Shown here: in pieces, positions 564-20,874 of the stretch | Position numbering within the stretch: position 1 is the stretch's first letter | Layout: the number at the start of each line of letters is the position of its first letter | Origin: a virus | Taxonomy: Duplodnaviria > Caudoviricetes | Virus record (IMG/VR): IMGVR_UViG_2974731955_000001 | Span: 34,827 to 98,826 of that record | DNA length: 64,000 bases | Reading direction: 5' to 3' (one strand) | Notes under the pieces: model-generated | The model's input: only the letters and a program-made list of their open reading frames with translations | What the model was told of the DNA's origin: nothing | Databases searched by the model: none | Translations under genes and position numbers: made by a program

Positions 564-758
564 TTGGGTAGGGGGATTATTCCCCCTTTAAATAGACTAC
601 TTGTTAACTCAAAACTCTATTTTCGGTATCTGTTGTGAAACACATACTGATTAAACTTAAATCCTGAGTAAATACATGTAACAGCTTGGCGGCGTTAGTG
701 GCTTATGGTTTACTCAGGATTATTTATGTTGAATTATTAACAATAAAATATAATCAGT

Positions 759-1447: not shown

Positions 1448-1912
1448 ATGAACAAATTTCGTGACTGGGCATTAGGATGCCTATGTTTAGTACTATTAGG
1501 AGCAATCCTATGGTACGGGTACGATAAGTACCATGGTACAAAACCAGAAATGGTTGAAGATCAACAAAGCACCGAAGTAATTATTCCTACTTTGGATCAA
1601 AAGTTAAACGATTGGAATGCAGAGAAACATAACACTGAACTGTATGATCTCTGTATGGAACTTCCCGAGCAAATAGTTAAAACTATTCTTAATAGAATAG
1701 GTACAACTGCAACTTATGAAGAGATAGCTGAGGAATATCTTCGTAATACTAATTATTATATTAGTATGCAGTTAAAAGAAGTTATGCCGGGAATAACTGG
1801 TCCAGATGCTAAAAATGCTAAAGTGGAAATAAGAACCGAGGTAGAAAGGCCAATACCAGAGAAAGATAAACCTGTAACTGTTCCAGTAATAGTGAAAGAT
1901 TCAGTCAAATAA
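1448..1912 (+). CDS. Membrane-anchored hypothetical protein
   Basis: N-terminal hydrophobic helix (WALGCLCLVLLGAILWYG) and an A/T-rich Bacteroidota-type leader. Confidence 0.75.
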   Translation: MNKFRDWALGCLCLVLLGAILWYGYDKYHGTKPEMVEDQQSTEVIIPTLDQKLNDWNAEKHNTELYDLCMELPEQIVKTILNRIGTTATYEEIAEEYLRNTNYYISMQLKEVMPGITGPDAKNAKVEIRTEVERPIPEKDKPVTVPVIVKDSVK

Positions 1913-2345
1913 TTCTCTTATACAAAGCCTTTGGTACGTATTGCCTGTGAAGGTAATACGTACAATCCTCAGGAGATGACAAGCATGTGGGGCGTAAGTA
2001 AATGCATATCTATATACTTAGCTGAATACGACAGAAAGAATATAGAAATACTCGTATTTGTGTTTATGATCGTGCAGATGTAAAAATCATGCCGTTAATA
2101 AGAATTGTACTGGCAATACAATTCTGCTACAACGTAAAATATGTTAGATAGCCAATTTTAAGAAGTTTTGTGTAAAAGTTTTTTAATATTTATTTTGCAG
2201 ACATAAAACTTCACAACAATTCTTGTTATTAGTTACTCACAGTACAATGTGAGTTGTTGTTAATCAACAATCGTTCATTCACAAACCTTCCCCATAGTTG
2301 TACATATGGGGACATCCTCAAAGTTATAACTTAAATTTATCAAAA

Positions 2346-2780
2346 ATGAAACAGTTATTATTGTATGGTAGCACAGGTAATAATGTCTGTGTTATCCAAA
2401 TTCCGACTAATTGGTCAGTTGATGAAGCTAGAGAATTTCTAGAAAAAGCTCTCTTAGAATTCGCAGCAAATAAGCAACACAACGAATTCTTTTCAATTTC
2501 AAATGAAGATGAACTCAACCAGAAATGGCCTAAGAAATCTTCAGAAATTGAAGAGTGTTGTAAAATTATTCTCAACAACATTGGCAGTCCAATTAATGGT
2601 GCTGGTGGTCTAATTTGGCAAGTCAGATTACAGTCATACATTATGACAAATCCTGATTTTACAAACAGACTATTCAAAGCCTTTGAGAAAAAATTAACTC
2701 GAGAAGAAGAGGCATTTCTAAGTGCCAATTATCTCGAGTTATTACCCACTTTAGTTAAAACTATTAAAAATAGTTTATAA
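2346..2780 (+). CDS. Hypothetical protein
   Basis: ORF track 2298..2780. The ATG of MKQLLL after 'ttatcaaaa' is the more likely start. Confidence 0.65.
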   Translation: MKQLLLYGSTGNNVCVIQIPTNWSVDEAREFLEKALLEFAANKQHNEFFSISNEDELNQKWPKKSSEIEECCKIILNNIGSPINGAGGLIWQVRLQSYIMTNPDFTNRLFKAFEKKLTREEEAFLSANYLELLPTLVKTIKNSL

Positions 2781-2896
2781 TGAGTAAAACATTTAAAGAC
2801 TCAAAAGGTACAAAACAAGGACGATCTGAAAAAGGTCGTCCTAAGCCAAAAATGACTCCTTACAAAAAGAGTACAAAAGTAAAAGAAGAATATTAA
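2780..2896 (+). CDS. Small basic peptide (38 aa, MSKTFKDSKGTKQGRSEKGRPKPKMTPYKKSTKVKEEY)
   Basis: ATG overlaps the upstream stop (TAATG). Lys/Arg-rich. Not in the ORF track. Confidence 0.55.
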   Translation: MSKTFKDSKGTKQGRSEKGRPKPKMTPYKKSTKVKEEY

Positions 2897-3116
2897 TCTC
2901 TCGCCAGTTATTGATATTTTTTAATTTTACATATATGGTGGTTATCCCCAAAAAGTCATGAATAAGCCAGAGTCCTAAGGCAAATCAAAGCTATATGAAG
3001 ATGTATAGTACGCTGATAAAGTAAAGGGGCTAGTGTATGATAAGACAACAAAGATTACACCGTGACTTTATTCTAAGACAACACAACATTTAACAAAATA
3101 AAATCAATTTATTAAA

Positions 3117-3509
3117 ATGCGAAGTAGAAAAAAGATGGAAACTACAAGAATTCGCAAAGCGAATGCTGTAGTAAAAGAAAAAGAGATTCTGTATTTTGCA
3201 CAGGATAGAGATGTAAGTACTCGCATGCTTGCAATACTATCCGTAAGTAAAACAAAATCTGGAGTAATGAAAGAGATAAAAGGTGCTGATGGAAAAGTCC
3301 AACAAATACTTTGTCCTGAAATTACTCGCTACAAAGTTATTTGTGGCTCCAATGGAAAAGTTGGAACAAGATTCAATACAGTAGCGTATGTTATTGTATG
3401 TAGGAAGGATATTCATAGAATAATCAATGAGACTCTAACTTGGAGTGAAACTAATCAAAGAATAAGTTTCTGGAACAATGTATATAATATGGCAGAAGAT
3501 ATAGAATAA
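3117..3509 (+). CDS. Hypothetical protein
   Basis: 130-aa ORF with an A-rich leader. Confidence 0.7.
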   Translation: MRSRKKMETTRIRKANAVVKEKEILYFAQDRDVSTRMLAILSVSKTKSGVMKEIKGADGKVQQILCPEITRYKVICGSNGKVGTRFNTVAYVIVCRKDIHRIINETLTWSETNQRISFWNNVYNMAEDIE

Positions 3510-3557
3510 AAACTTTTTTAAAAATCAATTTTATAAACCTTTTAAATTATCAAAATT

Positions 3558-3935
3558 ATGGCAGATTTCAATTTAGATGCAAAAATGCAAGAGCAAGAGA
3601 ACAATCAAGGTAAAGTTAACACTTCCGCAGTAGATAAAGCAAAAGAGAATATTGCTGCAAAGAAGTTAGAACAAGAGACTCGTGAGGTTGAACGTCGTCT
3701 ATCCAATGCAGAATCTACAGAAGATCGTGCATTAAAGGAATTACGTATGGCTCGTAAGAAAGAGGAAGCTCAAAAAGCATTTTTGACAGCTGTATCTACA
3801 GCTAAAACAAAGTTTGAGTCCGACGGAGATTATCGTGCATACGACAAAGCCGTTGAAGAAGCCGAAGAGAAGCGTGACAAGGCCGTTAGTGAGGCTAAGC
3901 GTGCTATCTATGGTGAAGATTATTGGCGTTATTGA
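3558..3935 (+). CDS. Coiled-coil hypothetical protein
   Basis: Ala/Glu/Lys-rich helical 125-aa ORF immediately upstream of the structured non-coding block. Confidence 0.8.
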   Translation: MADFNLDAKMQEQENNQGKVNTSAVDKAKENIAAKKLEQETREVERRLSNAESTEDRALKELRMARKKEEAQKAFLTAVSTAKTKFESDGDYRAYDKAVEEAEEKRDKAVSEAKRAIYGEDYWRY

Positions 3936-3939
3936 TACC

Positions 3940-4480
3940 CATTGATCACTCCAAATCAGAGCTGAGAGTGTCCGAGAGGCCTCTCAGTCTCTAATTATAG
4001 CTATATGCTGTAGTTAGAGATTAATGCCACGATTTAAAACTTCCGAATCGATAGTAGGAAAAATTACTCTGAATTAACAGAGTACTCAAGAGCCTTGAGC
4101 CAGAGTGGAAACTTTGAGCCACTGATCATGTGCCTAAGATCATTACTATCACTTGAAAAGTAACAGGATGTTACTGCTGAATCGCTAGAACCTTGAGTCA
4201 AGACCTAGTGATAGGCTTACGTAAGTAAGTTAAGTATAGTAATGATATCAAATCACACATAGAATTAGAGCTTTAAGCCGAAGTTGATGGTTATCGTCTT
4301 TTGATGGTAATTTAAAACTTCAAATTCTATAGATCTATCAAAGGCATTTACTATAGTAATAGAGAGCTTACATGCCTAAGTATTCTTTTTGAGGAGGTAA
4401 ATATGTATGCAAGCCGCATTGCGCACTCTTACAGAGTAATACACTCGCAATAAAGAAGGATACTTACTATTACTATAGAT
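3940..4480 (+). ncRNA. Candidate structured ncRNA (~540 nt) with a repeated RARCYUURAGYC motif
   Basis: No ORF. Nested helices such as 4351-4362/4467-4478 (12 bp), 4050-4056/4144-4150 and 4259-4266/4323-4330. Four motif copies. Boundaries approximate. Confidence 0.55.
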
Positions 4481-4558
4481 ATTTTAAAGAGAGTAAAGAG
4501 AGAGATCTCTTTACTTTCACTATCCCAATTTGGGAATTTGTTTGGAATTTTTCAAATT

Positions 4559-4639
4559 CATAGTATAAGAACTGTACTATGTCTTATTAGGTTTATTGGA
4601 AACTATTAGGACGAGGGTTCGATTCCCTCCAACTCCACA
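4559..4639 (+). ncRNA. ssrA: tmRNA acceptor piece (3' part of the tRNA-like domain) of a permuted two-piece tmRNA
   Basis: ACTATTA-GGAC-GAGGG-TTCGATT-CCCTC-CAACTCC-A: helix-2 strand, GGAC motif, T arm, 3' acceptor strand and discriminator A. The 5' boundary is uncertain. Confidence 0.85.
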
Positions 4640-4741
4640 TCTTTTTAAGTTTTAATTCGGTGATGTCACGCATGAATCATGGATAAAAGAATACGGCAGT
4701 AATCGCTTCCAGTACTATAAGTTCGTAATAGTATAAGGATA

Positions 4742-4790
4742 CCTGCCACCCACGGTCAGAAGCATAGAGGTTCGACTCCTCTTGGCAAGG
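4742..4790 (+). ncRNA. Mini tRNA-like element inside the tmRNA intervening segment
   Basis: TGCCA/TGGCA stem plus T arm AGAGG-TTCGACT-CCTCT (4766-4782). No canonical D or anticodon arm. Confidence 0.45.
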
Positions 4791-4851
4791 GTATAAACCA
4801 CTCCTAGATTAAAAGCCGCAAAGCTTCCAAGCAGGTGTGAGGCCTGCATAA

Positions 4852-4980
4852 GGGGTTGCATGGATTTGACTAGTAGTGAAAGGTAAAATAGGTTCGATTT
4901 AAAATTAAATGGCAATAACTTTGTCACAGATTATACTGCGATAGGAGCGTAATCTAACGTGCTAACTACGAAAGTGAGGG
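4852..4980 (+). ncRNA. ssrA: tmRNA coding piece (5' part of the tRNA-like domain plus tag ORF GNNFVTDYTAIGA*)
   Basis: GGGGTTG pairs with CAACTCC (4630-4636) including G3.U70. It is followed by CATGGATTTGAC and TAGTAGT (pairs with 4602-4608). Resume context AATTAAAT|GGC, tag ORF 4911-4952. Confidence 0.85.
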
Positions 4981-5053
4981 TATCTGATAGCTTAATGGTC
5001 AAAGCCTTGGATTTTACCAAGAGATTGTGGGTTCGAGTCCCACTCAGATAACA
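4981..5053 (+). tRNA. Non-canonical tRNA with a shortened anticodon arm (6-nt loop ATTTTA; possibly Lys-derived, anticodon undetermined)
   Basis: Acceptor TATCTGA/TCAGATA, D stem GCTT/AAGC, anticodon stem CTTGG/CCAAG, T arm GTGGG-TTCGAGT-CCCAC. Confidence 0.75.
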
Positions 5054-5085
5054 ACTTTTTATTAATCAATAATAATTAAAAGCGT

Positions 5086-5454
5086 ATGGATGTAAAATAC
5101 GAAAGTAAAAGACTAGTAATGTTTCGAAAGGAATGTATACTAGCAGGTCCTAGAGACTCTGTAGTAGGATTCTTTAGGTTTTTGAAGGAATTAGGGGCAG
5201 ATGTAGCCAAAACAGTTAATTCTGAAAATCTAGTAACTTCAAGAGGAAAAATAGTTCTTCTTCTTAAAAATGAGGGGAAAAATAAATTATTTCCACAAGT
5301 AACTGTGTTAAATAGAACATGGTGGGATTTCTACCATAATCCTAGAAAACACAAAACTAAGATTAAAACATACAATCTTCCAAAACAATGGAAACAAGTA
5401 TGTGAAAGTATCTTAATCCTTGAAAATGTACCACTATTAATTCCTGAATCATGA
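5086..5454 (+). CDS. Hypothetical protein
   Basis: 122-aa ORF, followed by an overlapping ~58-aa ORF (5451-5627). Confidence 0.7.
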   Translation: MDVKYESKRLVMFRKECILAGPRDSVVGFFRFLKELGADVAKTVNSENLVTSRGKIVLLLKNEGKNKLFPQVTVLNRTWWDFYHNPRKHKTKIKTYNLPKQWKQVCESILILENVPLLIPES

Positions 5455-7728: not shown

Positions 7729-9150
7729 ATGTCTAAAAATAAGAACAACAAAAACTCTCAGCAAGCAGTAGCTACTGAGAAGGAAAAGGAGAATAAGAAC
7801 GTGCAGACTACTGCACAAGTAAGTAACCCCACAAAGAAGGAGGACAAGCCAAAAGCTGATCCAAAACCTAAGAAAGATAAGGAACAGACGGCTACTCCAC
7901 CACCTGCAGCAGATCCTTCAGTAATTGATGCTACTAAAACAGCAGAAGTTATTGATCCGGAACCAAAAAAGAAATCCAATATCCCGAAGAAGATCGATCT
8001 TGCTAAGATTTCACTGACCACTAGTCAACGATTATCCGGTGATGGTTTTGCTCGTATGTTGGATGTAGCAGAGCGCTATATCTCTCGTATGAAAGCAGGT
8101 GAGCCAGCAACCATTAAGATGGAGCAGGCGTTCACTTATAATCTTGCTTGGGGCATCACAAAGATGTCAATTCAGGCTCGTGAGGAGAAGATTGAGTATG
8201 GTCTTAATGTACCGAATGATGATGTTATTGTAACTGATATCATTGATACATTCAATAGCCTTGGAGTGGCATTAGCTCCACATGTCTCTGAAGATGGCAA
8301 GCAAATGACGCTTGAGTTTCAGGAGATTAGTCCAGAAGCAGAGAAAGCAGCCAAAGAAGAGATCAAACAAGAGAAGACTCCGGTTGTTCCAGAGTTAGAT
8401 CCTGACAAATGGAAGAGTGAAGACGATGCAAAGAAAGGATTATCTTATATTCTTGCAAAACAAGATCAGTCATTTCCAAATCGGTTTAATGAAACTTTAT
8501 TAAAGGTTCGTACCTTTAAGAAAAATCAGGAGACAGATGAAGAAAAAAAGGCTGTATGGGACAAGATTGGTTTAGGTGCCCTATTCGAGAACGCAGTTCA
8601 ACTATTAGGAAACCGCTCAACTGCTCTTGTTCGTGGATTATGTCAAGGATGTGTATCTGCCTTAATTACGGATCACAATCCGATATTTGCTCATTCAACA
8701 GTTAAGTATAACTTACCAATGTTGTCTGAGGAAGAGGCCGCTGACTTGATTAAATCCTTTATTAAAGTACGTCAGGAAGATCCTAAACTTCCTATTGACG
8801 AGACTCCAGCTGTTAAGTTTGGTATTCTTGAGGCAACTCGTGAACAGTTCCTTAACATTCCAATGGATAACGAAATGCCGTTAGCCGAAATGGGATTGAA
8901 GAAGGATGATCCAAAGTACAAACAGATTACTCTGGCTAAGAAGATTATGAATAAGTTCCTTGAAGCGTATGGAAATGAAATCGGATATGATGATCCGAAA
9001 TTCTATTTACATGCGACTAACAAGATGATCGAAATTCGTAATCTATATGTCGATAAAGATGCGGCATTTACACCGTATACTGAAAGTGAATATCCAAAAA
9101 CTACTTCTACGGAAACTGCAGATCCTGAGAAGAAGAAAGAGGGTAAGTAA
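7729..9150 (+). CDS. Hypothetical protein with a disordered K/P/E-rich N-terminus
   Basis: 473-aa ORF. No family recognised. Confidence 0.85.
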   Translation: MSKNKNNKNSQQAVATEKEKENKNVQTTAQVSNPTKKEDKPKADPKPKKDKEQTATPPPAADPSVIDATKTAEVIDPEPKKKSNIPKKIDLAKISLTTSQRLSGDGFARMLDVAERYISRMKAGEPATIKMEQAFTYNLAWGITKMSIQAREEKIEYGLNVPNDDVIVTDIIDTFNSLGVALAPHVSEDGKQMTLEFQEISPEAEKAAKEEIKQEKTPVVPELDPDKWKSEDDAKKGLSYILAKQDQSFPNRFNETLLKVRTFKKNQETDEEKKAVWDKIGLGALFENAVQLLGNRSTALVRGLCQGCVSALITDHNPIFAHSTVKYNLPMLSEEEAADLIKSFIKVRQEDPKLPIDETPAVKFGILEATREQFLNIPMDNEMPLAEMGLKKDDPKYKQITLAKKIMNKFLEAYGNEIGYDDPKFYLHATNKMIEIRNLYVDKDAAFTPYTESEYPKTTSTETADPEKKKEGK

Positions 9151-17313: not shown

Positions 17314-17874
17314 ATGATCATTGAACTAGATACAAATCTAATGGAAACATTAGATATTTCAATAAATCAGCTAGTATTTTTAAGTCTTGTATTAGATAAG
17401 AATCAAAAGTCCAATCAAGGTATCACAACCATTATTCGCCGGGTCAGTGATAATGAGATACAAGACTTAATCGATAGAAATTTTATTCAAAAGAAAGACG
17501 ATAGTAAAAAAGTAACATATAAACCTACTAAGGAATTAGTAGATAAATTAACTCCTAAAGATATACTTTTCGAGCAATTTTATATGTTATATCCTATCAT
17601 GGTTACTAGACCAGATGGAACTAGAGGCTTTCTTAGAAGTAATCTAAAGAAATGTAGAGAATATTATAACAAATTAGTTAAAGGTAATCCCGATCTTCAT
17701 AACAGAATCGTAACTGCTTTAAACTTTGAGCTTACTGATAAGGCAATGACAGGAAAGCTTGGTTATATGAAAACTATGTGGAAATGGCTTACTTCACATG
17801 AATGGGAATTACTTGAAGAACAAATGAATGCTAACCAATCTGTATTTCAAAGTTATGGAACAGAATTACGATAA
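17314..17874 (+). CDS. Replication-associated protein (possible wHTH initiator or helicase loader)
   Basis: Lies between the polymerase and helicase genes. Has an FEQFYMLYP motif of the type seen in phage replication organisers. Confidence 0.55.
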   Translation: MIIELDTNLMETLDISINQLVFLSLVLDKNQKSNQGITTIIRRVSDNEIQDLIDRNFIQKKDDSKKVTYKPTKELVDKLTPKDILFEQFYMLYPIMVTRPDGTRGFLRSNLKKCREYYNKLVKGNPDLHNRIVTALNFELTDKAMTGKLGYMKTMWKWLTSHEWELLEEQMNANQSVFQSYGTELR

Positions 17875-19869: not shown

Positions 19870-20874
19870 TAAAAATAGTCCCTTTAGCTGGTAACAGTTA
19901 TAGCAAATCTCTTGAATTGCTGGAAACTCTTCTATAAATAGAACACATATACTGTTATAACGTTAATATGATATATGTACAATTTATATAAGACAATCAG
20001 CAGCTATGGAAAAATATAGTATTTTAGATAAAAAAACAATAATAGGACAAAATAAAAAAGGTAAAACTTATAGATATTTAATACAAGTAAAATGTAATGA
20101 TTGTGGACATATTAAATGGGTAAATCCATCTAATCCTTTTTATAAAAAAGGAATATGTAGAAAATGCAATGAATCTAATTATAGAAATCAAGTATTAAAT
20201 ATTGAAAATGATACTTTTAAGGTTCTTTCTATCGATAATGAAAGTACTGCAAAAAATCCTCGTCATACAAAATATTTTGTACAATGTAAAAGATGTGGAA
20301 AAATTTTTAGTAGACGAGCGAGTGTAATACGAAAAAGTTTAGAAAGTGTTGTTTGTTCTAATTGTAGAAAACTTCGAAATAATAAACCATTAAACGTTAT
20401 AAAATATAAAGAATACTGTTATTATAGATCTGGTGCAAAAGCTAGAAATTTAGAATGGAATTTAACGGAAGAACAATTTGCACATTTAATAAATCAAAAT
20501 TGTGTATATTGCGGAGAAAAGCCTTCTAAAAAACAAACAGTATCTTATAAAAATGAATATGAATTAGTAAATGGTATAGATAGAATAGATTCTTCTAAAG
20601 GATATACAGTTAATAACTGTGTACCTTGTTGCAGTAAGTGTAATCTTATGAAAAATAATTTTAAGAAAGAAGAATTTTTACAACATATAACTAAAATATA
20701 TAATTATTCTATTAGTTCAACGACTATCCCGAAAGGGAGTACATTCGAAGCTAATGCGAATGGAAGCGAGAGAATTCCTAACAAAAGGAATATGATATAG
20801 TCTATTCTACATGGTGACATGTAGCAGTTCATAAGAGAACGTATACAAACTTGCGAATTGTATAGAATATTAAG
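19870..20874 (+). mobile_element. Group I self-splicing intron carrying a homing endonuclease
   Basis: Exon ends in U, which pairs with G of the IGS (GTCC). P (AATTGCTGGAAACTC), Q (AATCAGCAG), R (TTCAACGACTA) and S (ATGATATAGTC) elements are present. Terminal G at 20874. Splicing restores GHTKD|KLINKNGED in frame. Confidence 0.9.
20006..20800 (+). CDS. Intron-encoded HNH homing endonuclease with CxxC zinc motifs
   Basis: CVYCG...NGIDRIDSSKGYTVNNCVPCCSKCNLMK, plus several N-terminal CxxC pairs. Confidence 0.88.
   Translation: MEKYSILDKKTIIGQNKKGKTYRYLIQVKCNDCGHIKWVNPSNPFYKKGICRKCNESNYRNQVLNIENDTFKVLSIDNESTAKNPRHTKYFVQCKRCGKIFSRRASVIRKSLESVVCSNCRKLRNNKPLNVIKYKEYCYYRSGAKARNLEWNLTEEQFAHLINQNCVYCGEKPSKKQTVSYKNEYELVNGIDRIDSSKGYTVNNCVPCCSKCNLMKNNFKKEEFLQHITKIYNYSISSTTIPKGSTFEANANGSERIPNKRNMI

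Follow-up and report, generated by a model that had tools for sequence, protein, structure and literature searches.

The window analysed here, 64,000 nt long, comes from a phage genome of 98,826 bp that is complete and carries direct terminal repeats. The closest public records are the crAss-like Suoliviridae phages cr55_1, cr1_1 and cr10_1. Comparison with Rfam identified four RNAs in the first 5 kb at the gathering thresholds: a hatchet ribozyme, RAGATH-22, a permuted tmRNA and a tRNA. RAGATH-22 falls within a long block between an ORF for a small helical protein and the tmRNA. The features of this region are listed in Table 1.

Table 1. Features of the RNA block and its surroundings. Positions are those of the window unless preceded by a locus label; a slash separates the two strands of a helix.
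Feature	Position	Strand	Basis or remark
Hatchet self-cleaving ribozyme	1965-2092		Rfam gathering threshold
Upstream ORF, 125 aa	3558-3935	+	Predicted helical hairpin; conserved left neighbour of the RNA
5′ leader	3945-3961	+	Short C-rich word 3948-3955, recurring just past the stop codon in most types (alignments)
Rfam RAGATH-22 match	3962-4128	+	5′ domain and part of core; model positions 1-166
P1	3962-3987	+	RAGATH-22 part
P2	3988-4020	+	RAGATH-22 part
P3	4042-4059	+	RAGATH-22 part
P4	4065-4084	+	RAGATH-22 part
Rfam P5	4099-4119	+	RAGATH-22 part
Core module	4063-4146	+	P4 hairpin with conserved loop, helix S1, A-rich linker, invariant 26-nt segment
Helix S1	4084-4087/4103-4106	+
Motif copy I	4090-4101	+	Loop closed by S1; conserved in types A, B, H and E
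Invariant 26-nt segment	4119-4144	+	Can form hairpin 4123-4127/4138-4142
Central domain	4130-4347	+	Closed by P6; MFE fold and pair counts on 33 sequences
P6	4130-4135/4342-4347	+
P7	4139-4149/4236-4246	+	Extension 4151-4156/4230-4235
Alternative helix X/X′	4146-4153/4207-4214	+	Competes with inner P7 for one strand
Variable hairpin	4160-4174	+
Second hairpin	4181-4212	+
P9	4216-4229	+
P10	4259-4266/4323-4330	+
Motif copy II	4268-4279	+	One-sided P10/P11 junction loop; conserved in types A, B and H
P11	4280-4285/4316-4321	+
Apical stem	4289-4312	+
3′ domain	4349-4480	+	Variable interior 4390-4453
P13	4351-4362/4467-4478	+
Motif copy III	4364-4376	+	P13/P14 junction, one-sided loop between stacked helices
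P14	4377-4389/4454-4466	+
Boundary hairpin	4493-4514	+	9-bp stem, GAGA loop, no U-run
Right neighbours	4548-5052	+	Two-piece permuted tmRNA and tRNA; Rfam, ARAGORN
tmRNA_permuted	4584-4952	+	Rfam
tRNA	4981-5051	+	Rfam, ARAGORN
tmRNA introns in relatives	L145:3747-3991 (cr55_1); L147:3138-3382 (cr1_1); L148:3568-3827 (-); L050; L012; L036; L172:1571-2152
Type B ORF	L145 about 3505-3640; L147:2896-3027		Between RNA and boundary hairpin
Further RAGATH motifs and ribozymes in relatives	L124:10808-10951; L146:1679-1857; L148:5036-5189 and 8806-8993; L361:6685-6901

An earlier reading of this DNA, made from its letters without database searches (the sequence-only reading), had described the block as free of ORFs. 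Inspection of positions 3936-4520 agreed with this, as no plausible ORF was found under translation table 11, table 4 or with TAG read as Gln. Coding under an alternative code (TGA as Trp or TAG as Gln) was considered and rejected, because no frame spans the block. Indels between relatives of the RNA block are not multiples of three. When the fold energy of the whole block was compared with shuffled sequences, z-scores of -7.2 for the plus strand and -3.7 for the minus strand were obtained, and the region outside the Rfam model (4129-4480) folded alone gave -6.1. The original proposal of a large structured non-coding RNA with a recurring motif is upheld.

In an nhmmer search 25 viral IMG/VR contigs aligned over positions 3951-4535. 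Conservation ends only 3′ of the boundary hairpin, and the spacer at 4515-4560 is unalignable even between close relatives. The block first delimited as 3940-4480 is therefore real, but its true span is from about 3945 to the hairpin, slightly beyond the original limit. We consider it likely that positions 3945-4515 of the plus strand are the gene for one large structured non-coding RNA of approximately 530 nt plus a terminal hairpin, and very likely that a real, single structured RNA family extends well past the Rfam models.

Scans for consensus promoters and terminators gave nothing usable: no promoter-like site was found directly upstream of the RNA, the Bacteroides-type -7 word was absent there, and neither promoter-like nor terminator-like sites were seen between the RNA domains. 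In the window, but not in its relatives, positions 3943-3952 of the 5′ leader resemble the 16S rRNA 3′ terminus with its anti-Shine-Dalgarno word; this is probably due to chance. Two conserved GATC sites were considered as a DNA-level signal and dismissed, since the count of GATC in the window is unremarkable (233 observed versus 191 expected).

The 5′ third of the RNA corresponds to RAGATH-22 (RF03098), which was matched over its full 166-position model with 155.6 bits, the gathering score being 120.3. In this part P1, P2, P4 and P5 show two-sided changes between the window, other type A loci and type B loci, and support for P3 is poor. The end of the RAGATH-22 model (4128) falls within a conserved hairpin at 4123-4142, and an Rfam search at E ≤ 5 returned nothing for 4129-4480. 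The sequence-only reading described below had assigned no family; the 5′ third scores above the RAGATH-22 threshold, and the core is related to RAGATH-20.

Across the end of the Rfam model runs the core module, which was found in seven of the eight sequence types among the matches listed and is missing from type F (cr10_1). Plain MAFFT alignment placed helix S1 in three different registers, and a covariance model, R1, was therefore built for realignment. It was constructed from types A, B, C, D, E and H, with no RAGATH-20 loci included. These six types scored 75-105 bits, the unseeded type G scored 46-49 bits (E about 1e-5), and cr10_1 gave no match to R1. In the window's own 98,826-bp genome R1 detected a single copy. 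In the R1-fitted alignment the covariation score of P4 and S1 was 0.462, compared to 0.10 or less for slid controls, and all variable pairs covaried. S1 is not part of the RAGATH-22 model; since it crosses the model's P5, which itself covaries between types A and B, this region probably forms an H-type pseudoknot.

The consensus of a second Rfam entry, RAGATH-20 (RF03048), consists of P4, S1, the linker and the invariant segment, which in the alignment follow the same order as in the core of the window. The window itself reached 46.2 bits for RAGATH-20 at 4066-4141, below the gathering score of 101.4. Type G loci (Loutivirinae) scored 119-124 bits for RAGATH-20, type H scored 125 bits for RAGATH-22, type B likewise matched RAGATH-22, and types C, D and E fell below both thresholds. 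Taken together, the scores of types G and H and the identity of the RAGATH-20 consensus with the core indicate that RAGATH-20 and RAGATH-22 are overlapping fragments of one larger modular family. Rfam gives no clan for either entry. Our literature search found no paper naming RAGATH-22, RAGATH-20 or their accessions, and no substantive link of Suoliviridae to non-coding RNA; the two names are not used in the main text of the 2017 paper that is the source of the RAGATH motifs.

Downstream of the RAGATH-22 match two helix-closed domains, 4130-4347 and 4349-4480, comprise about 350 nt outside the Rfam part and match no Rfam family. Their helices were analyzed in an alignment (A1) of 33 distinct sequences from two clades, A and B. 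All 55 pairs tested, drawn from P6, P7, P9, P10, P11, P13 and P14, lie outside the Rfam model. A standard pair was formed in 98.7% of cells, compared to 30-44% in slid controls; 11 pairs were changed on both sides (0-2 in slid controls) and the covariation score was 0.214 (0.02-0.03 in slid controls). The G-U and U-G pairs in P6, P7, P10 and P13 are compatible with the plus strand only. Many of the paired changes outside the core trace to the single split between A and B, and for types H, G and E the reading relies on folds of single sequences, so that independent events are modest in number and fewer than the cells. P7, P9 and P10 are kept with different sequences in L259 and L170/L173, and the same helices in the same order but with different sequences were found in L259, the Loutivirinae records and L169. 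The layout of the 3′ domain, a long helix followed by the motif and a second helix, recurs in types B, H and E with unrelated helix sequences; the domain is missing in type G.

Several pairings put forward in the sequence-only reading could be judged against these data. The two long helices that we call P13 and P14 are real and covary between clades. The third proposed helix, 4050-4056/4144-4150, has complementary strands in the window, but the second of them is part of the conserved P7; close relatives and the L259 clade have lost this pairing, and it was discarded. AGGC segments had been noted at 4213 and 4342 as complements of GCCT cores; both are present, and 4130-4135 pairs with 4342-4347 in a long-range helix that closes the central domain. 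A closing helix within the molecule is the best explanation of the AGGC/GCCU complementarity. A duplicated 8-mer is indeed found at 4131 and 4373; an 11-mer was likewise reported at 4033 and 4311, but its copy at 4033 is not conserved. Lack of covariation had been named as grounds for giving up the RNA, and this objection falls because covariation is clear.

The RNA occurs in at least eight sequence types, as established by pattern scans, clustering and record look-ups: A, the type of the window; B, cr55_1 and cr1_1; C, D and E, IMG/VR contigs; F, cr10_1, a reduced form; G, Loutivirinae Buchavirus (cr60_1, cr109_1, cr113_1 and cr52_1); and H, L259. The first scan, with a 14-mer, was unspecific (11 of 119 loci were true), and degenerate scans of genome and metagenome collections returned mostly chance matches and at least 18 true loci. 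All types listed occupy one locus, in which an ORF for a helical protein is followed by the RNA (about 330-620 nt), a hairpin, the two-piece tmRNA and a tRNA. The types come from two Suoliviridae subfamilies, and synteny is kept in Boorivirinae and Loutivirinae records. Types A, B and H have the RNA domains in the same order and at the same spacing; the 5′ domain of A/B/H is wholly unlike that of C/D/E/G. Outside the core, C and D are unalignable to A and B and no collinear structure could be derived; in both, the S1-type motif hairpin is seemingly located 3′ of the invariant segment and not 5′. The RNA of cr10_1 is shorter, with the motif kept and the core absent. Thus the family is modular rather than collinear. 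L259, a divergent member, is on a contig filed among prokaryote genomes; it shows the complete crAss-like setting of hatchet ribozyme, RAGATH-22, tmRNA and tRNA, and so probably represents phage DNA that was binned into a MAG. The early region of relatives also carries the orphan motifs RAGATH-9, RAGATH-14 and RAGATH-7 and up to two hatchet ribozymes; no RAGATH-9 match was found at E ≤ 5 in positions 1500-5200 of the window.

The recurring motif was first noticed as the 12-nt pattern RARCYTTRAGYC, four copies of which are all located in 4090-4279 with none elsewhere in the 64 kb. The chance expectation is 0.29, and four copies were reached in 0 of 100 shuffles. All four reported copies are present, but only those at 4090-4101 and 4268-4279 are conserved; the copy at 4109-4120 is mostly a helix strand, the one at 4188-4199 lies within an ordinary local hairpin, and a conserved copy at 4364-4376 had been missed. 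Expressed as G(A/U)GC-N5-(A/U)GCC, the motif is conserved at three places, and the invariant segment contains a half-site. The copies were first described as mostly in loops; in the conserved architecture the motif occupies helix junctions, not free hairpin loops. In type G the loop of copy I is swapped for a GNRA-capped hairpin and that of copy II for a 4-bp hairpin. The N5 part has thus become an extended hairpin at two motif places, one of these hairpins itself covarying, and so the two G-C pairs of the motif look like the base of a mini stem-loop. The number of copies per RNA varies by type from 2 to 5, and the motif is the one feature kept in all types listed, including cr10_1 without the core. 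It fits a recurrent architectural module or docking site; a sponge of free loops or a kissing loop fits less well.

On the left side, types A, B, C, D and E have ORFs homologous or equivalent to the upstream ORF of the window that stop 3-30 nt 5′ of the RNA. For the 125-aa protein, which is mildly acidic (pI 5.5), AF2 returned an all-helix model with a pLDDT of 78; it matched no Pfam or PHROG family and no PDB fold, and the same was true of the neighbouring proteins. Protein type and RNA 5′ domain type are discordant, with A proteins resembling those of C/D and A RNAs those of B/H, so a specific protein-RNA pair is unsupported. Within type A the upstream protein (3558-3935) is 98% identical and the RNA 5′ domain (3950-4061) 72%, with compensatory changes; this contrast reflects either fast structure-preserving evolution or recombination at the border between ORF and RNA.

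On the right side, a hairpin occupies the boundary position in every type listed, with stems and loops that differ. It is likely to mark the 3′ end of the RNA or a processing site. GNRA-capped hairpins of at least 8 bp recur in intergenic gaps of the window (627-646, 1939-1958, 4494-4513, 17336-17355 and 20806-20825); the one at 4494-4513 is the boundary hairpin, and the one at 1939-1958 lies directly 5′ of the hatchet ribozyme. Their recurrence suggests 3′-end-protecting or processing marks.

As to function, the reading we prefer, which is a tentative one, is that of a stand-alone folded RNA with a scaffold or docking mechanism. We infer a discrete transcript, its ends and even its strand from the data above. 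The RNA would be made as part of a rightward early transcript, would be bounded on its 3′ side at the GNRA-capped boundary hairpin, being either released from that transcript or ended within it, and would act in trans as a folded RNA. The G(A/U)GC-N5-(A/U)GCC junction module may then serve as a repeated architectural or docking element for a putative partner; the replacement of its loop by a hairpin in type G suits a structural role as well as a docking role.

The main rival to this stand-alone RNA is a cis-acting processing or stability element, that is, a structured spacer in the long early transcript that insulates the upstream mRNA, guides cutting and forms the 5′ leader of the precursor of the two-piece tmRNA. 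We regard this as possible but rather doubtful. It would account for a start no more than about 10-30 nt past the stop codon of the upstream ORF, for the lack of a promoter-like site there, for the constant position directly 5′ of the tmRNA, and for the presence in the same region of a hatchet ribozyme with a similar GNRA-capped hairpin just before it; RAGATH motifs were reportedly found by Weinberg et al. in 2017 through association with ribozyme-linked genes, which points the same way. However, a covarying multi-domain fold of about 530 nt with an invariant 26-nt core goes far beyond the needs of known processing signals, and a hairpin and an unalignable spacer separate the RNA from the tmRNA. 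The two readings are moreover not exclusive, as an RNA freed by processing can still act in trans. A multivalent sponge or decoy, in which 3-5 motif copies each bind one host or phage protein and so titrate it, was the first proposal made for this RNA and seems to us unlikely. The strong over-representation of the motif, its confinement to the RNA, its retention even in cr10_1 and its variable copy number would all suit titration. CsrB/RsmZ-type sponges are non-coding RNAs that likewise repeat one short motif, on exchangeable hairpins; in the RNA of the window the copies occupy fixed junctions between helices, within an architecture that is conserved and covaries, and one clade, type G, can dispense with the 5-nt loop. 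The upstream protein, which is the closest candidate for a partner, is acidic and has no match to an RNA-binding family.

Arguments concerning the architecture itself bear on three further readings. If RAGATH-22, a central RNA and a 3′ RNA were separate molecules, each acting alone, the closing helix of the 3′ domain, its loss from type G and the wholly different 5′ domains of A/B/H and C/D/E/G would be readily understood. We consider such a division improbable, as the core bridges the end of the Rfam model, P6 and P7 tie it to the central domain, no promoter-like or terminator-like sites lie between the domains, and order and spacing are maintained in A, B and H. A homo-oligomer made of RNA only, like those of ROOL and GOLLD and held together by loop-loop and A-minor contacts, is equally improbable in our view. 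This reading draws on the similar setting of those RNAs and on a conserved core with variable flanks as in GOLLD, as well as on the A-rich linker and a 6-nt self-complementary word (4123-4128) in the invariant segment; that word can pair intramolecularly (4123-4127/4138-4142), and neither sequence nor structure matches ROOL or GOLLD at E ≤ 5. Finally, strand X (4146-4153) might toggle between X′ (4207-4214) and 4236-4240 in P7 in response to a ligand, a protein or the order of transcription, and so alter the central domain's junction; of the two partners, one lies 5′ and the other 3′ of P9. In three clades a best-helix search gave pairings of 8, 10 and 11 bp for X and X′, and of 11, 11 and 16 bp for X and X′′ (P7); the sequences of X/X′ and X/X′′ differ between the three clades and both pairings are kept, and in L259 the two partner strands of X are a 10-nt duplicate. 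A switch remains highly improbable in our estimate: the overlap in A and B is only 4 nt, a three-way junction with some branch migration would explain the data equally well, and no evident ligand-type pocket or expression platform was seen. The alternative pairing may represent junction breathing or a real switch. A further argument for a single unit is that strand 4139-4142 is common to hairpin 4123-4142 and P7, and that the loop of that hairpin is used by P6.

The first third of the RNA is already known as RAGATH-22. What is new with respect to Rfam and searchable papers is the RNA at full length, with its two additional domains, S1 and the junction module, together with the connection between RAGATH-20 and RAGATH-22. 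The RAGATH-22 model shares the 5′ domain and part of the core with the RNA of the window but spans only the first third of the conserved RNA and lacks S1 and the central and 3′ domains (about 350 nt); the RAGATH-20 model has the same core elements and covers about 100 nt of a roughly 430-nt RNA.

A resemblance to ROOL and GOLLD had been suggested from the size and position of the block. Neither of them (RF03087 and RF01998) was detected by Rfam in positions 1500-5200 of the window up to E = 5; the phage setting beside tmRNA and tRNA is that reported for both. ROOL and GOLLD are large ornate RNAs of phages and prophages that form RNA-only nanocages; they are found beside tRNA-type genes, have no known protein partner and, in the case of GOLLD, combine a conserved core with variable flanks (PMC12286853). 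The RNA described here is similarly phage-encoded, about 0.5 kb long and folded into several domains, with tmRNA and tRNA directly downstream. It differs in its helices and motifs, and it was found in one crAss-like family among the matches listed. ROOL and GOLLD are its closest analogues in setting, but it belongs to neither family. Two long intergenic regions of phage phi14:2, more highly transcribed than most of its genes (bioRxiv 10.1101/2020.03.07.982082), are a precedent among crAss-like phages. Like the RNA of the window, they are long, non-coding and located early in a crAss-like genome, and in phi14:2 they are transcribed rightward; that phage belongs to a different family and has a different host, and the two are likened by description.

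These results turn two unconnected orphan Rfam entries into one full-length RNA of about 430-620 nt with a defined locus, a shared core, an unmodelled helix that probably forms a pseudoknot, two new domains and a recurrent junction module. They supply a concrete construct for transcription, probing and imaging, and give annotators a reason to merge and extend two models. Crassvirales are among the most abundant human gut viruses, and to our knowledge almost nothing is known about their non-coding RNAs. The fixed place of the RNA beside the phage tmRNA offers a testable link of large ornate phage RNAs to translation, a link also suspected but unproven for ROOL and GOLLD. RAGATH-20 and RAGATH-22 could even represent pieces of large ornate phage RNAs that form a class of their own and have their own activity, for example a higher-order RNA or RNP assembly that cooperates with the two-piece tmRNA in the takeover of host translation, the junction module docking and the exclusive helices switching; we put this forward as a distinctly unlikely extension.

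Some additional features of the tmRNA and tRNA region were observed. The tRNA at 4981-5052 has a 6-nt anticodon loop: ARAGORN reported a two-base anticodon, and the Rfam alignment is one loop position short. Its counterparts in relatives are annotated as tRNA-Lys. In type B a 43-codon ORF lies between the RNA and the boundary hairpin; it contains an in-frame TGA in cr55_1 where cr1_1 has TGG, and this TGA could be read as Trp or could indicate a decaying ORF. In several relatives the T-arm of the tmRNA is split by a group I intron, often with an HNH or other endonuclease ORF. The window's own tmRNA has no intron; three type A loci show a break in the alignment at this same T-arm position.
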